A stretch of DNA of 64,000 nt, from assembly GCA_963509815.1 (NCBI GenBank), contig CAUPCM010000005.1:149-64148 (forward strand), written 5' to 3'. The notes beneath the pieces are model-generated. The model was not told the origin of the DNA. It searched no databases and worked only from the letters and a program-made list of their open reading frames with translations. Position 1 is the first letter of the stretch. Each line of letters begins with the position of its first letter. Below are positions 2,070 to 64,000 of this stretch, one piece after another. This stretch comes from an uncultured Atopobium sp. (GTDB lineage Bacteria > Actinomycetota > Coriobacteriia > Coriobacteriales > Atopobiaceae). Both the position numbers and the translations under genes were made by a program.

Positions 2070-3437
2070 TTACTCGCTGTTTTCCCGCATACTGTTCTTG
2101 CGATGCTTATAGAACTCTGCGAGGTGTACAAAGAGTAGGCCCAAAATTGCAGAAGCAAACGATGCGGCGAGGACAGCTACCTTAGCTGCAAGTATCTCCC
2201 CTGCATCGGGGAATGCAAGATTAGAGATAAGAATTGACATGGTAAAGCCAAGGCCGCCCATAAGACCAACAGCAGTAATCTGAATCCAGTCAACTTGTGC
2301 AGGAAGCTTGCAAATCTTACATTTGACCAGCAACAACGTTACAAAAATAATTCCTAGTGGCTTACCAAGAACGGCACCTAAGAAAACGCCATGTGCAATA
2401 GTGCTGCTTAGTAGAGCACCAAAATCTGCTCCCACGAGCGTAATCTGTGCGTTTACAAAGGCAAAAATAGGCAGAACAACAAAGTTTACAAAGACAGAAA
2501 TATAGTGCTCAACACGCTGAAGCGGTGGAGTTACGTGATGCATGACCTGCTCGATAGAGTTGGCACCATGGGTAAAGTCATGCTGACCTAAAACGTGATG
2601 CTCGTCATCGTAGTGATCATCAAGCTCACGAGCGCGTCTTGAAAGCCAGCTTCCCAGCTTACTCAAGCGAACATCAGAGTGAGATGGCAAGAAGAAGGCA
2701 AGAAGGACGCCCGAAAGGGTAGCGTGAATTCCTGAGTGGTACATGCAGACCCAAAGAACCAAACCAACAAGCAAATAAGGGCCGGAAGAATAAATCTTTA
2801 AGCGATTCATTCCCCATAGAATAACAAGAACACCAAGAGAAGCTGCTAACCAGGCAATATTTGGCGTCTGGCCATAAAAGAGCGCGATAACCACAATTGC
2901 CAGGATATCGTCAGCAATAGCAAGTGTCTGGAAGAACACCTTAGTCTGTGGGCTAATTCTGTTGCCCAACAGCGACATGACACCCAGCGCAAACGCAATA
3001 TCGGTTGCAATTGGCGTTGCCCATCCATGAGGAGCAGTACTTGCATTGAGCGCCAGATAAATGAGGGCAGGAACTGCGACACCGCCGACAGCAGCAAGCA
3101 TAGGGAGCATTGCTTGTCTTGGCTTTCTAAGCTGGCCAACAGTTACTTCATATTTGAGCTCGATGCCTACCAGCAAGAAGAAAATTGCCATAAGGAAGTC
3201 ATTCACAAAGGTCTCTAGAGCCATATGTGCATGAATCATTCCAAGCGAGAAACTCATTTGGACTTCAAGAATTTCTCGAACCACCTCATGAGCAGGTGAA
3301 TTGGCAACTACAAGTGCAATAAGAGCCGCAAGCACCATGACTGCTGCTGCAATAGTGCTGTTAGAGGTAATTCTCTTTAGAGAAGAGCGCTGGCTAATTC
3401 TTCTTACTACAACGGGCTCTCTATAAATACTAGACAT
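2070..3437 (-). CDS. nhaA: Na+/H+ antiporter NhaA
   Basis: 455-aa polytopic protein with NhaA hallmarks: FFLLVGIELKYE, PIATDIAFALGV and AIADDILAIVVIALFY. Confidence 0.9.
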   Translation of the reverse strand: MSSIYREPVVVRRISQRSSLKRITSNSTIAAAVMVLAALIALVVANSPAHEVVREILEVQMSFSLGMIHAHMALETFVNDFLMAIFFLLVGIELKYEVTVGQLRKPRQAMLPMLAAVGGVAVPALIYLALNASTAPHGWATPIATDIAFALGVMSLLGNRISPQTKVFFQTLAIADDILAIVVIALFYGQTPNIAWLAASLGVLVILWGMNRLKIYSSGPYLLVGLVLWVCMYHSGIHATLSGVLLAFFLPSHSDVRLSKLGSWLSRRARELDDHYDDEHHVLGQHDFTHGANSIEQVMHHVTPPLQRVEHYISVFVNFVVLPIFAFVNAQITLVGADFGALLSSTIAHGVFLGAVLGKPLGIIFVTLLLVKCKICKLPAQVDWIQITAVGLMGGLGFTMSILISNLAFPDAGEILAAKVAVLAASFASAILGLLFVHLAEFYKHRKNSMRENSE

Positions 3438-10231: not shown

Positions 10232-10250
10232 TTCTTCATCAGAGCTTCTT

Positions 10251-10274
10251 GGCGAGAAAATCGGTCTTCTCGCC
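10251..10274. repeat. GGCGAGAA-N8-TTCTCGCC hairpin (GGCGAGAA family)
   Basis: ggcgagaa aatcggtc ttctcgcc, 20 nt after the glnN stop and upstream of the true terminator. Confidence 0.75.
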
Positions 10275-10291
10275 ACTTCACCTATAAAGCA

Positions 10292-24642: not shown

Positions 24643-24864
24643 CTATGACCAGTGTGGTAAGTCATGAAAGTCTTTTATATGGTCTTGAGCTTCCTGTTCT
24701 CTTTCTGCCAAGGCTTCTCGTAAACCTTTCAGTGCATCAAAAGGCATAAATATTTTTGCCCTATTTGCTCGCGACATACGAGGGTGTCCGTAATGCATCT
24801 GAGCTGCAAACGCATCCTCTTTTGCGGTGGCTTCCGCTGGCGAGAAACCCTGTTTAGGCCTCAT
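24643..24864 (-). CDS. YolD-like protein (small partner of Y-family polymerases)
   Basis: The ATG at 24864 has GGAG 9 nt upstream and overlaps the polymerase stop by 11 nt. The motif KIFMPFDALKGLREAL fits the YolD-like family, as does the position directly after a UmuC/UvrX-like gene. The ORF track extends to 24966. Confidence 0.65.
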   Translation of the reverse strand: MRPKQGFSPAEATAKEDAFAAQMHYGHPRMSRANRAKIFMPFDALKGLREALAEREQEAQDHIKDFHDLPHWS

Positions 24865-26860: not shown

Positions 26861-26923
26861 TTTTACCCAGTTAAACTGTTGCAGAAAGTACCTGCCAAGC
26901 CCTCTATAACCTGGCGAGAAACC

Positions 26924-27382
26924 CTACTCCTCGTTAATGCCCTCGTTAATAGCCTGAGCGATAGCTTCCTGATCATTAGAGCCACGAAGGAAGGACTTAA
27001 ACTCATCTCTCATCAGAAGAACAGCGGTCTTAGAAAGAAGCTTGATGTGAGTGGTGCCAGCCTCTCCATCTGGGACAAGCAGTGCAATAGCAACATCAAC
27101 GGGCTTCTCGTCAAAAGAAGGCCACTCAAGAGGGGTGTTGTTCTTGAAGACAAAGACAGCTGCGTCCTTGATAGCCGCGTCTTTTGCGTGAGGAACTGCA
27201 AAGCCGTCAGTCATGCCGGTCTCACCCATCTCCTCGCGAGCTAGGAAAGCGTTGTAAACAGCGTCTGCATTATCAGTTACGCCAGCCTCCTGAGCCTTAT
27301 TGGCAATAAAACGCAGGACATCATTACGGCTCGCTGCGTTCTGGTTTACAAAAACATTGTCTGCCTTAACAAAACCGCTCAT
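26924..27382 (-). CDS. PTS EIIA component, fructose/mannitol (type 2, PtsN-like) family, orphan
   Basis: 152 aa. GMTDGFAVPHAK carries the phosphorylatable His, and ALLVPDGEAGTTHIKLL is also typical. No EIIB or EIIC gene is nearby. Confidence 0.85.
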   Translation of the reverse strand: MSGFVKADNVFVNQNAASRNDVLRFIANKAQEAGVTDNADAVYNAFLAREEMGETGMTDGFAVPHAKDAAIKDAAVFVFKNNTPLEWPSFDEKPVDVAIALLVPDGEAGTTHIKLLSKTAVLLMRDEFKSFLRGSNDQEAIAQAINEGINEE

Positions 27383-29790: not shown

Positions 29791-30738
29791 GTGGCATCAT
29801 CAGATCTTTCTACTAGAAACTCTTCCGGACTCACACTAGATACTTCTTCTACGCTTGTATGGAAGTTTGCCCTTCTTATCTGCGCGCTTATCTGGGGTGG
29901 GTCATTTGTTGTTATCAAGGATGCAATTAGTTACATCTCGGCAGCCTGGCTTATGACCTTACGTTTTGTTATTGCTGTAGGTATTGTTGCCATCATCTTT
30001 AGAAAAAATCTCAAAGAGCACTTAGATTTCACGCATATCAAATACGGTGTGCTTTTAGGTGTTCTCAACGGTTTAGGATACCTGTTCCAAAACATGGCAC
30101 TTGCCTATACAACCGCTGGTAAAGCAGCCTTTATTGCATCAATTTATTGCGCGATGATCCCGTTTGTAAACTGGCTCATTGCCAAGAAAAAGCCTCATGG
30201 AACCAGTATTTTTGCAGCCTTTTTATGCGTGGCTGGCATTGGCCTTATCTCGCTGGGCACTGATTTCTCGTTCTCGTTTGGCTTGGGCGAGCAGATGACA
30301 TTGCTCTCAGCCATTATTTTTGCTTTTGACTTTGTGCTTATTGCCGAGCTTGCTCACAAATACGACATCATCACGCTTACGGTGGTGCAGCTTGGCGTGA
30401 GTGCTCTTCCCTGCCTTGTCTACGCCCTTTGCTTTGAGACCGTTCCTCAGTTTGCGACATTGTCCACAAATGCCTGGCTTGCCCTGGCCTACATCACTCT
30501 CATTGCTACCGCACTGACCGGTGTTTTGCAGAATCGTGCGCAGAAGTCAGTTGCTCCTGTTCAGGCTTCACTGATTATCTCTCTGGACAGTATTTTTGCA
30601 GCAGTTTTTGGCGTCATCTTCCTTGCCGAGGTTATTACCCCCACAATCTTCCTGGGCTTTATTGTTATCTTTGTTGCAATCTTTATCAGCGAGGTTGGCG
30701 AGAAACCCGCAGAGCCCCAAACCGCTTCAGAAAGCTAA
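29791..30738 (+). CDS. DMT superfamily (EamA-like) transporter
   Basis: 315 aa, 10 hydrophobic helices in two EamA-like halves. The GTG start is uncertain. Confidence 0.75.
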   Translation: MASSDLSTRNSSGLTLDTSSTLVWKFALLICALIWGGSFVVIKDAISYISAAWLMTLRFVIAVGIVAIIFRKNLKEHLDFTHIKYGVLLGVLNGLGYLFQNMALAYTTAGKAAFIASIYCAMIPFVNWLIAKKKPHGTSIFAAFLCVAGIGLISLGTDFSFSFGLGEQMTLLSAIIFAFDFVLIAELAHKYDIITLTVVQLGVSALPCLVYALCFETVPQFATLSTNAWLALAYITLIATALTGVLQNRAQKSVAPVQASLIISLDSIFAAVFGVIFLAEVITPTIFLGFIVIFVAIFISEVGEKPAEPQTASES

Positions 30739-40363: not shown

Positions 40364-42047
40364 GCAATACGCTTACAAACAGTGGGCAATCAAGCTGCGC
40401 AGCCTCGTAAATCTCTGGGGTTGTCTGTGCTTCTTGCACATTGACGTCTGCAACAACACAGCCCTTCTCGAGAAACACTACTCTGTCAGCAAAAGGAAGC
40501 CATTCGCTTACATCATGGGTGATTGCAAGAACCGCTTTGCCCTCGTTTGCCAGCTCGCGAGCAAGATGCAGCACCTGCGAGCGCGCCTCGCCATCAAGTC
40601 CAGACGTTGCCTCATCAAACACCACCGCGTACGTTGCGCAGGCCAGTGTTCCTGCAAGCGCCGCGCGACGAGCCTGGCCACCAGAAAGCGTCAACGGAGA
40701 CGCATCCATGACCTGCTGGTCAAGCCCCACACGTGCTGCCGCATACGCGACAAGCGCTTCAACATCGTCTGGCGAGAAACCCTTGTTAGTTGGACCAAAC
40801 GCAATATCTTCAGCAACACTTTGGGCAAAAAGTTGATCCTGAGGACGCTGAAAACACATGCCGACATCTCCAGGACGCACCAGTCGCGCATCGATTGTTG
40901 CGTGCCCGGTATCAGCCTCTATGAGGCCAGCGGCTATGCGGGCGCAGGTTGTTTTTCCAGAGCCAGAAGCGCCTACCAGAACAACAAGCTCCCCTGTGGC
41001 AGATAGTGTTACGTCATGCAGAACGGGCCTGTCAAACGCGTGAGACACGCCACAAACTACCAGCTCGTGTTCCTCGCCAAGAGCTTGAATTCCGTCATAG
41101 TTGCTTGCTCGCACCACCTTAAGGGCACGCTGATACACAAGGGTATCCAAAGCATCAAACGCAAGGTTGTTCTGAACAAGAAACGCAACAAACTTTGATG
41201 CGTTAAAAGGCACATCAAACTCATAGCCAGCCTGTGCAGCAACATGCGCTGTTGCTGTGAGTGCATCATCGAAACCAGCGTTTGCGATTGCGTTTGCATC
41301 CAAGAGAAACTCTGTGGGAGTTCCCGACCAAACTAGCTGGCCTTTCTCCAAAACAAGAACCCGGTCAGCCCCGGGAAGAGACTCAAATGAATGAGAAATC
41401 TCAAGCACACCCATCCCGTTTGCAACAAGGGTATTTACCAGGTTAGAAAGGTGATTTCTGAATCGAGTATCAAGCTGCGCAAACGCCTCATCAAGCACCA
41501 GATAACGTGGTTGCACTGAAAGCGCTGCTGCAATAGAAACAAGCTGCTGTTGGCCTCCAGAAAGCGTATGGGTAGGCGCATCAATCAAATCGGCAATGCC
41601 ACAAAGCTCCAGTGTTTGAGTAACGCGAGAAACTATCTCTTCTTTTGGCAAACCAAGATTAGCAGGGCTAAAGGCAACTTCATCAAAGACAGTTGCACAA
41701 ACAAGCTGCGCTGTTGGATCTTGACGAACCATTCCCACAACGGAAGAAATCTGAGTAGACGGCACTACAGCAACTGAATTACCGTCTACTAAAACCTCTC
41801 CGGATAGAGGAAAAAGTGATGCATTACAAAGATTTGCAAGCGTTGACTTGCCTGAACCATTGTGGCCAAGCACAACTGTTCTAGAGCCCGGCTTTAGGGT
41901 AAATGAAACGTTATCAAGGGTTAGTGCCATTGGGTGCGGAGATTGGCCCTCAGTGGCTCCTATGGCATCTTTAGAAGCAGAGTCAGTCAAAGATTGTGCT
42001 GCAGCTGACGTACCGTATGCGAAAGATACGTTTTTGAACTCAATCAT
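40335..42047 (-). CDS. ecfA: fused ECF transporter ATPase (EcfA1-EcfA2 in one polypeptide)
   Basis: 570 aa with two complete ABC cassettes: GHNGSGKST/LSGGQQQ/LVLDEAFAQLD and GASGSGKTT/LSGGQARR/VVFDEATSGLD. Confidence 0.9.
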   Translation of the reverse strand: MIEFKNVSFAYGTSAAAQSLTDSASKDAIGATEGQSPHPMALTLDNVSFTLKPGSRTVVLGHNGSGKSTLANLCNASLFPLSGEVLVDGNSVAVVPSTQISSVVGMVRQDPTAQLVCATVFDEVAFSPANLGLPKEEIVSRVTQTLELCGIADLIDAPTHTLSGGQQQLVSIAAALSVQPRYLVLDEAFAQLDTRFRNHLSNLVNTLVANGMGVLEISHSFESLPGADRVLVLEKGQLVWSGTPTEFLLDANAIANAGFDDALTATAHVAAQAGYEFDVPFNASKFVAFLVQNNLAFDALDTLVYQRALKVVRASNYDGIQALGEEHELVVCGVSHAFDRPVLHDVTLSATGELVVLVGASGSGKTTCARIAAGLIEADTGHATIDARLVRPGDVGMCFQRPQDQLFAQSVAEDIAFGPTNKGFSPDDVEALVAYAAARVGLDQQVMDASPLTLSGGQARRAALAGTLACATYAVVFDEATSGLDGEARSQVLHLARELANEGKAVLAITHDVSEWLPFADRVVFLEKGCVVADVNVQEAQTTPEIYEAAQLDCPLFVSVLHELLEACHV

Positions 42048-57251: not shown

Positions 57252-57872
57252 TTAGGCCATGCGGACCTGGACGAGGGCATTCTTGCCGCCAGGAACAGCA
57301 CCCTTGATAAGCATGAGGTTCTGCTCAGCATCAACGCGGACAAGCTTAAGGTTCTTGACCGTAACGCGCTCTGCGCCCATGTGACCATACATGTGAAGGC
57401 CCTTACGAACGCGTGCAGGGTATGCGCACTGACCAATGGAACCTGGACGACGCTGGTTACGAGAACCGTGAGTCATTGGACCGCGAGAGAAGTTCCAGCG
57501 CTTAACGGTACCCTGGAAACCCTTACCCTTAGAAGTGCCTGTTACGTCAACAGCGGTGACCTCGGAGAAGTCAGCAACTGTGACAACATCGCCGGTCTTG
57601 TGCTCAGAAGCATCCTCAACGCGGACCTCGCGGAGGTAACGCATTGGCTCGACGCCCTGTGCCTTGAAGTGACCAGCCATTGGCTTGTTGACATGCTTCT
57701 CAGAGATGTCGCCGAAGCCAATCTGTACGGCATTGTAGCCGTCCGTCTCAACAGTCTTTACCTGTGAAACGGTGCAGGGGCCAGCAAGAACGACGGTAAC
57801 AGGAACGACGTTGTCGTTCTCGTCCCATACCTGGGTCATGCCCAGCTTGCGGCCGAGGATGGTATTAACCAT
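57252..57872 (-). CDS. rplC: 50S ribosomal protein L3
   Basis: MVNTILGRKLGMTQVWDENDNVVPVTVV...KGKGFQG. The ATG at 57872 has an AGGAAAGAG RBS; the track ORF extends to 57941. Confidence 0.96.
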   Translation of the reverse strand: MVNTILGRKLGMTQVWDENDNVVPVTVVLAGPCTVSQVKTVETDGYNAVQIGFGDISEKHVNKPMAGHFKAQGVEPMRYLREVRVEDASEHKTGDVVTVADFSEVTAVDVTGTSKGKGFQGTVKRWNFSRGPMTHGSRNQRRPGSIGQCAYPARVRKGLHMYGHMGAERVTVKNLKLVRVDAEQNLMLIKGAVPGGKNALVQVRMA

Positions 57873-58136: not shown

Positions 58137-58150
58137 TTGGCGAGAAACCC
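58137..58150. repeat. left arm of the perfect 14-bp inverted repeat flanking the phosphatase gene (TTGGCGAGAAACCC)
   Basis: ttggcgagaaaccc at 58137-58150. Its exact reverse complement gggtttctcgccaa lies at 58870-58883. Confidence 0.85.
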
Positions 58151-58288: not shown

Positions 58289-58825
58289 CTAGGCAGCTAT
58301 AAGTTTCTTGAACAATGCTTCACAACCCTCAGTGACATCCTCATACGTCAGGTCAAAATTGCCCGAATACCACGGATCCGCGATATCGCGAGGCTTCTCT
58401 GTCCAGTCAAGAAGCAACAAAACCTTTCCAAGCGGATCATCCTTAAGCATACGCATCATGTTGCGCAGGTTGTTGTGATCCATACCAATGAGGTAATCAA
58501 ACTCCTCATAATCTGCGCGAGTCATCTGCCTGGCGCGATGATTGCCGCAATAGATCCCCTCTTGCTGCAGTTTTCTACGCGTGCGAGGGTCCACAGGATT
58601 GCCGATCTCTTCTGTGGATGTTGCGGCTGAGTCAATGAAGAATGAATCTGCCAGACCGTTTTTCTCGACAAGGTCTTGCATGACATATTGCGCCATTGTT
58701 GACCTGCAAATATTTCCGTGACACACAAAGAGGATCTTGGTCACGTGGGAGTTCTCCGGGCGGCCGGTGTTCATCTGGTTGCTTATATTCAGCTGGCTAC
58801 TTGCGTTCTGCTGGTTATGCTTCAT
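58289..58825 (-). CDS. low-molecular-weight protein tyrosine phosphatase (LMW-PTP)
   Basis: P-loop ILFVCHGNICRST (CxGNxCRS) and Asp-loop DIADPWY. The ATG at 58825 has AGGAGAAAAG upstream; the track ORF extends to 58933. The gene sits between rpsJ and rplC. Confidence 0.88.
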   Translation of the reverse strand: MKHNQQNASSQLNISNQMNTGRPENSHVTKILFVCHGNICRSTMAQYVMQDLVEKNGLADSFFIDSAATSTEEIGNPVDPRTRRKLQQEGIYCGNHRARQMTRADYEEFDYLIGMDHNNLRNMMRMLKDDPLGKVLLLLDWTEKPRDIADPWYSGNFDLTYEDVTEGCEALFKKLIAA

Positions 58826-58869
58826 CTTTTCTCCTGCGCTTTGTGCGAGTATTTGCTTTCTAATTCTAC

Positions 58870-58883
58870 GGGTTTCTCGCCAA
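58870..58883. repeat. right arm of the 14-bp inverted repeat flanking the phosphatase gene
   Basis: gggtttctcgccaa, 45 nt upstream of the proposed phosphatase start. Confidence 0.85.
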
Positions 58884-58936
58884 GTGCAGGTGCGGGCATT
58901 CAGCTCTTTCATCACGCTGAATTTATCGCTCACCTA

Positions 58937-59128
58937 ATCCAAAACCTGCGCAGTTATGTGTGTGATACTGGCTATTGTAGATTTTTGGAGCTCGATTAAT
59001 CCAAAAGCGCATTAATTATGTGTCGAGAAACCCGATTTTGATCCAAAACCCACCTAATTATGTGCCTTTCCGCACATAATTGCCTCACTTTTGGATTAGG
59101 CGGACACATAATTACCCAGGTTTTGGAT
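58937..59128. repeat. array of five copies of the bipartite motif ATCCAAAA-N9-TTATGTG (three direct, then two inverted)
   Basis: Forward copies lie at 58937-58960, 58999-59022 and 59041-59064. Inverted copies (CACATAA-N9-TTTTGGAT) lie at 59073-59096 and 59105-59128. Both boxes are perfect in all five copies and the spacer is always 9 nt. Confidence 0.9.
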
Positions 59129-59250
59129 CAATCGACCCTGAAAAATCTACGAAGTGGCGCCACGCAGGCGGGCGCGGGTCTATGCGAGACCTCGCGAACT
59201 TACGCGGTCCTTCGCACGTGATTCGTGCATGCTTCTATGTCCATCCACGC

Positions 59251-59286
59251 AAAAACCCTCCCACGCGGAGATGCGCAGGAGGGTTT
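59251..59286 (-). terminator. intrinsic terminator immediately after rpsJ
   Basis: On the minus strand: aaaccctcc-(16-nt loop)-ggagggttt followed by ttgcg, starting 24 nt after the rpsJ stop. Confidence 0.65.
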
Positions 59287-59309: not shown

Positions 59310-59618
59310 TTAGAGCTTGATCTCGATATCGACACCAGCTGGAAGGTCGAGACGCATAAGCGAATCAACGGTAGAAGCGCTTGGGTCGAGAATATCGATG
59401 AGACGCTTGTGAGTGCGCATCTCGAACTGATCACGGGAATCCTTATCCTTGTGTGGTGAGCGGATAACGGTGTAAAGGTTGCGCTCGGTTGGCAGAGGGA
59501 TAGGACCGGAAACACGCGCACCTGTCTTCTGTGCGGTGTCAACAATCAGCTTAGCGGACTGATCAATGACCTCGTGATCATAGCCCTTGAGGCGAATCCT
59601 GATCTTCTGGCTTGACAC
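59310..59618 (-). CDS. rpsJ: 30S ribosomal protein S10
   Basis: (V)[44 protein letters not shown]... The GTG at 59618 has GGAGGT 7 nt upstream and gives the canonical 102 aa; the track ORF starts at 59633. Confidence 0.95.
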
Positions 59619-59661
59619 TTTGGGTACCTCCATAAATGAGCTAGAGCTCGTGGTCGTTTAC

Positions 59662-62781: not shown

Positions 62782-62918
62782 CAAGCCACTGTGCCGGGCG
62801 TATCTATACTTCATAGAAATTACACGATGAGACAAGCATTAGTTTTAGACGAAGGAGTCTTTGTTTTCAAAAACTATAAATTTGGCGAGAAATACCTTGG
62901 TTAAGGACGACTCTAAAC

Positions 62919-63407
62919 TTAAGAGACTAACCTCAAAACAGCAATTACTTCTTCGCCATCTTTCTCGCCCGTCTCAACAAATCCGTATGAACGATAGAGA
63001 TCTCGCGCAACCTTATTGTTGGGTTCATAGGAAAGCCAACAAAACTCTGCTTTTCCGCAGGGAAAGGTGCGTATAAATTCCAACGCAAGCATGAGCGCTT
63101 CTTTACCGTATCCCCTACCTTGAAATTTTGCATCAATCATCAGGCGGCGAAGATCGTAATTATTTTGAGCTATTGCTGGAGCGTCATCCCAGCTGCTATC
63201 TGTACCAAACCCAATCATCAAAAAACCTACCGGCACGCCATCATGGTATATGCCGAAAGGAAAAATCTGGGCGTTTTCTGCCTTGGCTATATAGGCTTCG
63301 ATAAGACTTACCTCATTTCCAGCAACAAAACTTTGCTGGTCCTCGGACACCTTGAGCTTAAGAATGTCCCACACGTTTCTTCCGTTTATGTGCTGAAGAT
63401 TCACCAT
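62919..63407 (-). CDS. GNAT family N-acetyltransferase (diamine/spermidine acetyltransferase-like)
   Basis: 162 aa. LRRLMIDAKFQGRGYGKEAL (acetyl-CoA binding Q/RxxGxG/A) and ARDLYRSYGF. Confidence 0.85.
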   Translation of the reverse strand: MVNLQHINGRNVWDILKLKVSEDQQSFVAGNEVSLIEAYIAKAENAQIFPFGIYHDGVPVGFLMIGFGTDSSWDDAPAIAQNNYDLRRLMIDAKFQGRGYGKEALMLALEFIRTFPCGKAEFCWLSYEPNNKVARDLYRSYGFVETGEKDGEEVIAVLRLVS

Positions 63408-63466
63408 AAGGTATCAATCAAAAGTTCATTGCTTGTTGATATAAAAAGCGACAAACTTCTACTGTC

Positions 63467-63835
63467 CTAGTGCTGATGTGCAGCATGAGCAAGGCCGACG
63501 CTAATAAGCGTAATGACGTGATCATCTGCAAGAGAATAAATGACACGACGACCATCTCGTTTTGCAGTTACCAAACCGCGGTCACGTAAAAGACGAAGCT
63601 GGTGAGATGTAGCAGACTGAGAAACAGAAAGAAGCTCCTGCAGCTCAGTTACGCTTTTCTCGCCCAAAAGAAGAGCTCCCAAAATCTGAAAACGTGTAAA
63701 GTCAGAAAGCGCATCATAGATTTGAGTGGCATCGTAGACGATATCGTCGTTAGTGAGAAACTCATGCAGTTTTTCTTCAGTAACGCACTCGCAGATAGCG
63801 TGTGTATGCTCGCACTCGTGAGAATGGTCAGTCAT
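63467..63835 (-). CDS. ArsR/SmtB family metal-responsive transcriptional regulator
   Basis: His/Cys-rich N-terminus MTDHSHECEHTHAICEC, the wHTH ALSDFTRFQILGALLLGEKSVTELQELLSVSQSATSHQLRLLR, and a C-terminal HAAHQH. Confidence 0.88.
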   Translation of the reverse strand: MTDHSHECEHTHAICECVTEEKLHEFLTNDDIVYDATQIYDALSDFTRFQILGALLLGEKSVTELQELLSVSQSATSHQLRLLRDRGLVTAKRDGRRVIYSLADDHVITLISVGLAHAAHQH

Positions 63836-63943
63836 GGTAGTTCCTACTCTTTACAACACAAAGCTCCGCTTACACGGACTTCTCGCTAAATATTGTTTGT
63901 AACGCACCTTAGTATATACCGACTCCGCGTCGCGGGAGCCTAT

Positions 63944-63980
63944 AAAAAGAGGACTCCAGCTAACGGCTGAAGTCCTCTTC
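63944..63980 (-). terminator. intrinsic terminator for a minus-strand gene lying beyond the window end
   Basis: On the minus strand: aagaggact-tcagccgttagctgg-agtcctctt followed by tttat. Confidence 0.5.
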
Positions 63981-64000
63981 TGTATCGGATTCAATATCCG

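Follow-up and report, generated by a model that had tools for sequence, protein, structure and literature searches.

A dispersed array of phased bipartite sites in the rpsJ-phosphatase spacer of an Atopobium species, and its link to a gene for a predicted nuclease

The array between rpsJ and the phosphatase gene

The window analysed here, a 64-kb stretch of contig CAUPCM010000005.1 from an uncultured Atopobium sp., carries an array of repeated sites between rpsJ and a phosphatase gene (all coordinates are window positions unless a locus is named). The gene order on the - strand is rpsL, rpsG, fusA, rpsJ, a terminator-like hairpin, the array, the phosphatase gene and rplC. rpsJ, which encodes ribosomal protein S10, is found at 59310-59633 (-), the gene for the low-molecular-weight phosphotyrosine phosphatase at 58289-58825 (-; ATG at 58825; Pfam LMWPc, E = 3.6e-34) and rplC, encoding ribosomal protein L3, at 57252-57872 (-). 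The array is a copy, in its long form, of a non-coding dispersed repeat element, termed T1, and occupies 58934-59155 (-) as delimited by BLAST, an nhmmer profile and alignments; T1, T2 and T3 are names given to families of such arrays. Elsewhere, T1 copies bracket a gene that encodes a 337-amino-acid protein with a predicted nuclease domain.

The array consists of five 24-bp bipartite sites with the sequence ATCCAAAA-N9-TTATGTG. The window has exactly five matches to this pattern, each with 0 mismatches although 2 were permitted; 0.07 matches are expected by chance and none of 100 shuffled sequences contained five. The half-site ATCCAAAA is present six times in the window, five of these inside the array, and the half-site AATTATGTG four times, always inside the array. 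Read from rpsJ towards the phosphatase gene, the order is A, B, then C, D and E. Pattern matching places site A (ATCCAAAA CCTGGGTAA TTATGTG) at 59105-59128 (-), site B (ATCCAAAA GTGAGGCAA TTATGTG) at 59073-59096 (-), site C (ATCCAAAA CCCACCTAA TTATGTG) at 59041-59064 (+) and site D (ATCCAAAA GCGCATTAA TTATGTG) at 58999-59022 (+). Site E (58937-58960, +) lies beyond the core palindrome and is missing or truncated in short-form copies. An initial annotation of this DNA had described five perfect sites, three on the + and two on the - strand, together with their spacing and a hairpin at a head-to-head junction. These descriptions are correct: the site-to-site offsets are 62, 42, 32 and 32 bp, and the junction of sites B and C at 59055-59082 pairs perfectly into a hairpin of 10-11 bp around a loop of 6 nt.

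A palindromic core, GTAGATTTTT...AAAAATCTAC, extends over 58975-59150 and marks the ends of short-form copies. Its arms (58977-59024 and 59103-59150) are 48 nt long and 79% complementary, and the mean column identity of the core is above 90%. In coordinate order, the second and fifth sites sit in these inverted arms and the third and fourth at the apex, so that the whole array amounts to a single large, imperfect palindrome. A linker motif, CGGGTTTCTCGACA (reverse complement TGTCGAGAAACCCG), is present between sites C and D at 59020-59033 (-). The linker is a variant of CGAGAA[AG][AC][AC]CG, a motif also found in the arrays of distant systems.

Comparison with full-length copies points weakly to a putative degenerate sixth site, Z (ATAGAAGC-N9-TCACGTG; 9/15 box positions), which the window may retain at 59215-59238 (-). 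Short, degenerate, G+C-rich repeats (CACGTGCGAAGGACC, GCACCCGCACGTCCGC) border arrays at 59156-59240 and at positions 2150-2260 and 3290-3360 of locus L014, and in T1 copies whose Z site is intact this degenerate stretch forms the spacer between Z and A.

The element is flanked by DNA that is constant across strains. On the upstream side, directly after rpsJ and outside the element, an intrinsic-terminator-like hairpin with a T-run (59253-59286, -) is kept in all strains. Downstream, the constant feature is TTGGCGAGAAACCC-G-TAGAAT; in the window this is represented by CACTTGGCGAGAAACCC-G-TAGAAT (58863-58886, -) upstream of the phosphatase gene, a promoter-like -10 hexamer that follows a genome-wide 13-mer, and the DNA common to all strains begins here.

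T1 as a dispersed repeat and its exchange with sibling arrays

The pattern ATCCAAAA-N7-AATTATGTG was scanned against one genome each from 185,579 species; all copy numbers that follow are lower bounds. Among the matches listed, multi-site matches are found only in Atopobium/Lancefieldella genomes, and other taxa show single-site matches only, at about the chance rate. Plasmid and phage collections contain no match to the sites. No multi-site match was present among the viral contigs listed, where the 15-base pattern gave single, chance-level matches only.

Profile searches detected at least 46 T1 copies in 15 flank clusters, which represent about 11-15 different flanking contexts. At least 3-4 loci and 4-5 copies were seen per genome, and on one 1.5-Mb contig they are located at about 56, 141, 440 and 1,330 kb. 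Copies are found between convergent, divergent and co-directional genes; they align as one conserved element and their flanks are unrelated. The borders are sharp: a BLAST comparison of the window with non-orthologous loci shows repeated DNA only from ~58931 to 59155, and a profile built from 31 distinct T1 copies (nhmmer) gives a single window match at 58928-59169 (E = 1.6e-80). The initial annotation had proposed a search of related genomes for further phased clusters, as would be expected of a regulon or a mobile-element end, and such clusters are indeed present. A gene for an XRE-type membrane protein, located near arrays in two contexts, is the sole recurring flanking gene and was deemed coincidental.

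A full T1 copy is ~255 bp long and displays six of the 24-bp bipartite sites, whose starts are offset in the pattern Z-62-A-32-B-32-C-42-D-62-E. The palindrome of a full copy runs from Z through E, each half consisting of three sites in the same orientation (Z, A, B versus C, D, E), and the outer ends of full copies read 5'-TGATCC...GGATCA-3'. The 32/32/42/62-bp offsets recur across T1 copies. The short form is the 176-bp core (58975-59150), to which the long form adds site E, and truncated or internally deleted copies are found at orthologous sites. The tetranucleotide GTAG at the core edge is variable (ATAG, GCGG, GCAG and GTAA). The five sites in the window are the internal structure of one T1 copy, and the element is lineage-specific to the Lancefieldella (Atopobium) parvula group.

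Within the element, the boxes are the best conserved part. Identity over the 31 copies is 98.9% in the boxes, 88% in the spacers, 91% in the rest of the core and 49% in the flanks (boxes versus spacers, p about 4e-7; boxes versus rest of core, p about 1e-6). T1 is predicted to fold into a single long hairpin (z = -8.6 as DNA), and the boxes also exceed the other paired positions of this hairpin (98.9% versus 93.9%, p = 1.7e-4). The initial annotation had interpreted the sites as a protein-binding array in the S10 operon. Box conservation and the invariant spacing are in keeping with the first part of that proposal; the array has no specific tie to the S10 operon. The variable spacers described there are no sign of relaxed constraint: spacers differ from site to site inside one element, yet are mostly conserved per site between T1 copies.

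The rpsJ locus was compared in 10 metagenome loci that encode an identical S10 protein and in further strains. The phosphatase gene is present between rpsJ and rplC in 10/10 of these loci, as it is in all related loci, and T1 in 2/10; the remaining loci display a different array in the same place. Further strains have T3 alone or T2+T3. The spacer contents among strains with identical S10 are T1, T2, T3, T2+T1 or T2+T3, and a genome that is 97.5-98% identical to the window has T2+T1. The T2 array, GCCTGAWWW-N3/4-CAAAGAATCTGT, consists of three direct copies ~31 bp apart and one inverted copy, and T3, GCC[TG]G...CCA[TA]GTCTGA, is laid out like T2. T2 was seen at loci L002-L009 and L253 and T3 at L005 and L249-L252; positions 2930-3300 of L014 provide a further instance. 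Both are themselves dispersed, often beside T1 and tandem 20-bp units (GCACCTGGCGAGAAACCC). A 414-bp T1+T2 composite, with similarity that spans T1 site E to the outermost T2 site, is repeated inside one genome. The rpsJ-phosphatase spacer is a recombination-prone swap site where sibling arrays replace one another, and sibling families are exchanged at such hot spots. As the arrays are swapped, truncated and dispersed, they do not fit an operator of the S10 operon.

A gene bracketed by T1 copies and its distant homologues

At locus L030, a 337-amino-acid open reading frame (positions 2202-3215) is situated between two complete, inverted T1 copies. Six independent metagenome contigs (L255-L260), all of those retrieved for one close relative, show an open reading frame of 337-339 amino acids in the same bracket, T1 (reverse), open reading frame, T1 (forward). 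The layout is E D C B A Z, an AT-rich upstream region, the open reading frame, then A B C D E; in the L030 copy, the one read for this feature, the final codons of the open reading frame overlap a Z-like sequence on the right-hand side. Close relatives of the protein, several hundred member sequences with 85-100% identity, are on short contigs. The 337-amino-acid open reading frame and most of its relatives are indeed spread over many very short metagenome contigs. This pattern suggests that the flanking arrays are places where assemblies routinely break up.

The protein family is large and comprises at least 2,944 clusters (50% identity) at E <= 1e-3 in a filter-free search, with mostly full-length members of ~320-370 amino acids. 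Searches of Pfam, NCBIfam and PDB sequences with the 337-amino-acid protein gave nothing significant, and no account of this family or of T1-type repeats was found in the literature. Residues E188, D233 (P232-D233), Y252, G254, H257, D264 and R267 are invariant, and there is a conserved EY-G-H block. Sub-threshold matches to REase_MTES_1575 and DUF2726 were detected, as was a weak match to mREase_II, a model without a curated cut-off. The AlphaFold model (pLDDT 80.6, pTM 0.84, from a 23-sequence alignment) has PD-(D/E)xK nucleases among its top Foldseek matches: VRR-NUC (probability 0.91), cap-snatching endonucleases, FAN1 and I-Bth0305I, all at E >= 0.08. The N-terminal half has no match in these searches. 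Taken together, motifs and model point weakly to a resemblance of the C-terminal half to PD-(D/E)xK nucleases of the Vsr/DUF559 type.

Four distant relatives with 24-32% identity, in hosts of 41-72% G+C, were examined, and all four are flanked by arrays of their own that differ in sequence from T1 and from each other's sites. At L263, eight ATCAGACAAG[TC]CC sites flank the gene, four per side, where 0.01 are expected; they are spaced 30-31 and 42 bp apart and include one head-to-head pair 6 nt apart. L265 has thirteen CGTTGC-N7-GGGGTTRTGGCA sites, four forward and three reverse upstream and three forward and three reverse downstream, at spacings of 62-63/41/35/62/41 bp. Seventeen GTTGMGG-N7-G.C.GGGGCACG sites, spaced 42/62 bp, are found on both sides of the gene at L266. 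At L261, units are present at both contig ends and only a 30-bp spacing is seen. Thus the spacings of T1, ~30-31, 41-42 or 62-63 bp, recur in 3/4 of these systems with unrelated sequences. The gene family is consistently bracketed by such arrays, and coincidence is very unlikely given arrays on both sides in 4/4 distant homologues.

Sequences that match CGAGAA[AG][AC][AC]CG lie inside or beside the arrays of T1, L265 and L266, with 2-5 matches per locus versus any match in 2 of ~150 unrelated control loci. The motif is ~100-fold enriched in Atopobium loci and in the loci of the distant homologues. A related 13-mer, GGGTTTCTCGCCA[AG], is strongly over-represented and has 36 matches in the window at <= 3 mismatches versus 5.2 expected. 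Six copies are exact (24837-24850, 26911-26924, 30695-30708, 40769-40782 and 58137-58150, all on the - strand, and 58870-58883 on the + strand), a near copy is at 59020-59033 (-) and an inverted pair at 10249-10276. The 13-mer is found within and between genes with unrelated flanks, and in one case an inverted pair lies between convergent genes and makes a hairpin resembling a terminator, like the uptake sequences of Neisseria. Possible roles of the 13-mer are those of an uptake signal, of a target for a nuclease or of a half-site standing alone.

At two of the distant loci (L265 583-1809, L266 513-1904), the homologue is directly downstream of a gene with a JetD_C domain (Wadjet-like), and L266 has an extra array upstream of that gene. 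This adjacency may merely reflect related hosts.

Selfish-repeat interpretation, alternatives and adjacent sequence

The array in the window is probably a solo, gene-less copy of a selfish repeat linked to the nuclease-like gene, and a passenger in the rpsJ-phosphatase spacer. The 24-bp sites would most likely be recognition sites of a trans-acting protein, and not of one that regulates the S10 operon. As the binder, the 337-amino-acid protein family with its predicted C-terminal PD-(D/E)xK nuclease is the best candidate, and solo arrays such as that in the window would be derivatives without the gene. Of the proposals in the initial annotation, that of multi-site mobile-element ends placed head to head comes closest to the evidence, with the amendment that the likely partner is nuclease-like and no classical transposase. 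For the ribosomal operon the outcome is deflationary, the array being a passenger repeat and no new regulator of ribosomal protein genes. If the protein binds and cuts the arrays, this would explain the strain hypervariability of the rpsJ-rplC spacer and of other intergenic regions in a common oral bacterium; such hypervariability matters for strain typing and assembly, since many contigs break at the arrays. For mobile DNA, a widespread family not covered by Pfam is now tied to a DNA grammar that can be recognised, which makes a function testable. With binding and cleavage by the protein, a nuclease fold would also be added to the few repeat-seeding systems, such as that of the repetitive extragenic palindromic (REP) sequences and their RAYT transposase.

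Several observations weigh against a selfish repeat. Target-site duplications were absent from five full-length copies in different contexts. There is no identical pair of T1 copies within any genome, where identity is 80-93%, and orthologous pairs show no higher similarity than paralogous pairs (0.90 versus 0.89). Recent mobility is therefore not shown, and the T1 family is either old or being homogenised; gene conversion is an alternative source of the box conservation. Where flanks are readable, the T1-flanked gene is found at one chromosomal locus only, with ADH and Na/H-exchanger neighbours, and it is present in only 2 of the ~25 Atopobium genomes that the T1 scan turned up. Most T1-bearing genomes thus seem to be without the gene, which makes ongoing selection of the boxes by the protein hard to explain. 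No homologue of the gene was detected beside T2 or T3 arrays in the DNA examined. The nuclease assignment comes from motifs and sub-threshold matches, with every Foldseek E value >0.01 and Pfam scores below cut-offs. Finally, binding of the 24-bp sites by the protein, its cleavage or recombination of DNA, and the spread or exchange of arrays by this route are steps that we infer.

A bolder version of the selfish-repeat interpretation, put forward tentatively and with more doubt than belief, is that T1 and its siblings belong to a class of selfish element not described before. They would represent its DNA half, and the other half would be the gene for a predicted nuclease of ~340 amino acids. 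The protein would combine an N-terminal domain of unknown fold with a C-terminal PD-(D/E)xK nuclease domain. Two palindromic arrays with spacings of ~31, 42 and 62 bp would bracket the gene, and array sequence would co-evolve with the protein. Gene-less arrays would be shed and build up in intergenic DNA, and solo arrays would be the cause of a cassette-like exchange at hot spots, among them the rpsJ-rplC spacer. CGAGAA[AG][AC][AC]CG, which is over-represented genome-wide, may be the cleavage site. If such a class is real, a PD-(D/E)xK nuclease fold would underlie a system for mobility or recombination; no known bacterial transposase that acts alone uses this fold.

The closest analogue of the T1 system appears to be the REPtron. 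In REPtrons and TIRtrons, REP/REPIN sequences or terminal inverted repeats (TIR) are associated with a gene for a tyrosine transposase, RAYT or TIRYT (PMC3116915, PMC3733652). As in REPtrons, a single gene is located between inverted copies of a repeat that is also dispersed gene-less in intergenic DNA, several repeat families are present per genome, units are palindromic, target-site duplications are absent, and repeat and protein change in step across taxa. However, protein fold, unit size and copy number differ. The T1-flanked protein is not an HUH/Y1 transposase, having no Pfam match and being PD-(D/E)xK-like. The T1 unit measures 220-255 bp and is built of five or six bipartite 24-bp sites that are not themselves palindromic, whereas a REP sequence is a 20-40-bp hairpin. 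T1 copies are few (at least 4-5 per genome) compared with tens to hundreds of REPs, and the GTAG tag is loose in T1.

Among the alternatives to a selfish repeat, one that is unlikely but deserves consideration is that the arrays are sites maintained by the host for an architectural or regulatory DNA-binding protein, possibly the 337-amino-acid family acting as a regulator. Gene-flanking arrays would then be autoregulatory, and solo arrays would be further binding sites, like REP sequences and bacterial interspersed mosaic elements (BIMEs) that are bound by host proteins. Such a role would account for boxes that outdo every other part of the element in conservation, for copies at orthologous sites in many species-level genomes and for a spacing that sets direct copies on one face of the helix. 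The apparent age of the family, with no identical copies within a genome, and the absence of target-site duplications are also consistent with it. On the other hand, the truncated and internally deleted orthologous copies and the wholly different arrays in the rpsJ spacer of different strains are unlike an indispensable site. That copies lie not just upstream of genes but also in convergent intergenic regions does not fit well either, the candidate protein is absent from most array-bearing genomes, and its conserved nuclease-type catalytic residues favour an enzyme.

It is improbable that T1 is an ordinary miniature inverted-repeat transposable element (MITE) from an unrecovered DDE transposon of the Mu/Tn7/IS21 kind and that its link to the 337-amino-acid gene is coincidental. 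The likeness to MITEs is nevertheless real: T1 is short, non-coding and multi-copy, with sharp borders and terminal inverted repeats, and many copies are partly deleted and apparently decaying. Each T1 half displays its three sites in one orientation, as a terminal site, a gap and then two sites, an arrangement that resembles Mu attL and the Tn7 left end. With Mu attL/attR, Tn7 and IS21 ends and their MITEs, T1 further shares its size, non-coding nature, inverted halves with three phased ~24-bp sites each, and the TG/CA outer termini of full copies, which are typical of that superfamily. T1 differs from Mu/Tn7-type ends in the lack of a 5-bp target duplication, none being found in the five full copies. 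No DDE, HUH, serine or tyrosine transposase was detected near any T1 copy (46 loci, 117 scanned stretches), so that a transposase-bearing copy was not recovered, and the plasmid, phage and listed viral sequences are equally devoid of arrays. The only T1-associated gene is bracketed by whole palindromic copies and not by half-elements. The arrays that the four distant homologues each have on both sides are hardly a coincidence.

That the element acts as RNA is very improbable. A long hairpin in an rpsJ read-through transcript or in the phosphatase leader would serve as a terminator, processing site or stabiliser, and one long hairpin is indeed predicted on the transcribed strand (-79.5 kcal/mol, z = -5.6); REP and BOX elements have such side effects (PMC3733652). 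Yet Rfam gave no match at the gathering score nor at E <= 1, and no covariation was detected: the 53 predicted pairs gave 1 compensatory, 30 broken and 29 one-sided cells, with pairs broken as often as kept. In addition, box positions outdo other stem positions in conservation, site E is outside the hairpin, copies are found in both orientations relative to their neighbours, and the array already has a conserved terminator upstream and a promoter-like element downstream.

A locus-specific operator for the phosphatase/rplC operon, or an iteron or centromere-like site, both of which the initial annotation had suggested, can scarcely be upheld: the array does have a terminator on one side and, on the other, the promoter-like element that precedes the phosphatase gene, and three direct plus inverted repeats do recall iteron origins, but the same element is present in ~11-15 unrelated contexts, including between convergent genes, orthologous copies are truncated or deleted, strains with identical S10 have other, unrelated arrays at the rpsJ locus, no rep, par or regulator gene is adjacent, and there is no second copy in the window to define a regulon. 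Theta-plasmid iterons resemble T1 in having direct repeats on one helix face followed by inverted copies upstream of a gene; they differ in that T1 has no rep gene, many chromosomal copies and no plasmid match. CRISPR was rejected, as there are no unique spacers. No convincing match to known NrdR, LexA or CRP boxes was apparent, and DnaA boxes were also dropped.

Two further systems invite comparison. E. coli BIMEs and pneumococcal BOX elements are mosaics in which modules stand side by side in varying combinations, as do T1, T2, T3 and the 13-mer. T2 and T3 also have tandem ~31-bp units closed by an inverted copy, and the 414-bp T1+T2 composite is repeated in like manner. The sequences are unrelated, however, and T1 has a bipartite, phased site grammar and a candidate dedicated protein. 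I-Bth0305I, a Vsr-like PD-(D/E)xK homing endonuclease (PDB 3r3p), is a weak structural match to the C-terminal half (rank 18) and, similarly, a selfish nuclease whose gene is tied to a long specific DNA target. Here the match falls far short of significance, neither an intron nor an intein forms the context, and the arrays consist of repeated sites and not of one homing site. MITEs, REPs, Mu/Tn7 ends, iterons and operators each have defining features that T1 lacks. The repeat system is apparently undescribed.

A few minor features of the adjacent sequence are of note. The nearest relatives of the phosphatase (58289-58825) outside the Atopobium group are ~70% identical, and where a source is named, in a few cases, it is Clostridia; its N-terminal 30 residues are Q/N-rich and strain-variable. 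Horizontal acquisition of the gene is possible. A sequence of 14 bp, GGGTTTCTCGCCAA, is present in two exact copies, at 58137-58150 (-) and 58870-58883 (+), which bracket the gene as an inverted repeat. This pair is present in most related strains and may record the entry of a phosphatase cassette into the rpsJ-rplC junction. Between the end of fusA and the start of rpsJ there are 28 bp (59634-59661); tuf is thus not located between the str and S10 clusters here. The region upstream of rpsL (62800-64000; positions 1-900 of L001-L010) is variable between strains with identical S10, and the variants comprise an ArsR-type regulator, either alone or accompanied by a GNAT acetyltransferase, an Rce1-like protease, HypA, and rpoC followed by an ArsR-type regulator.

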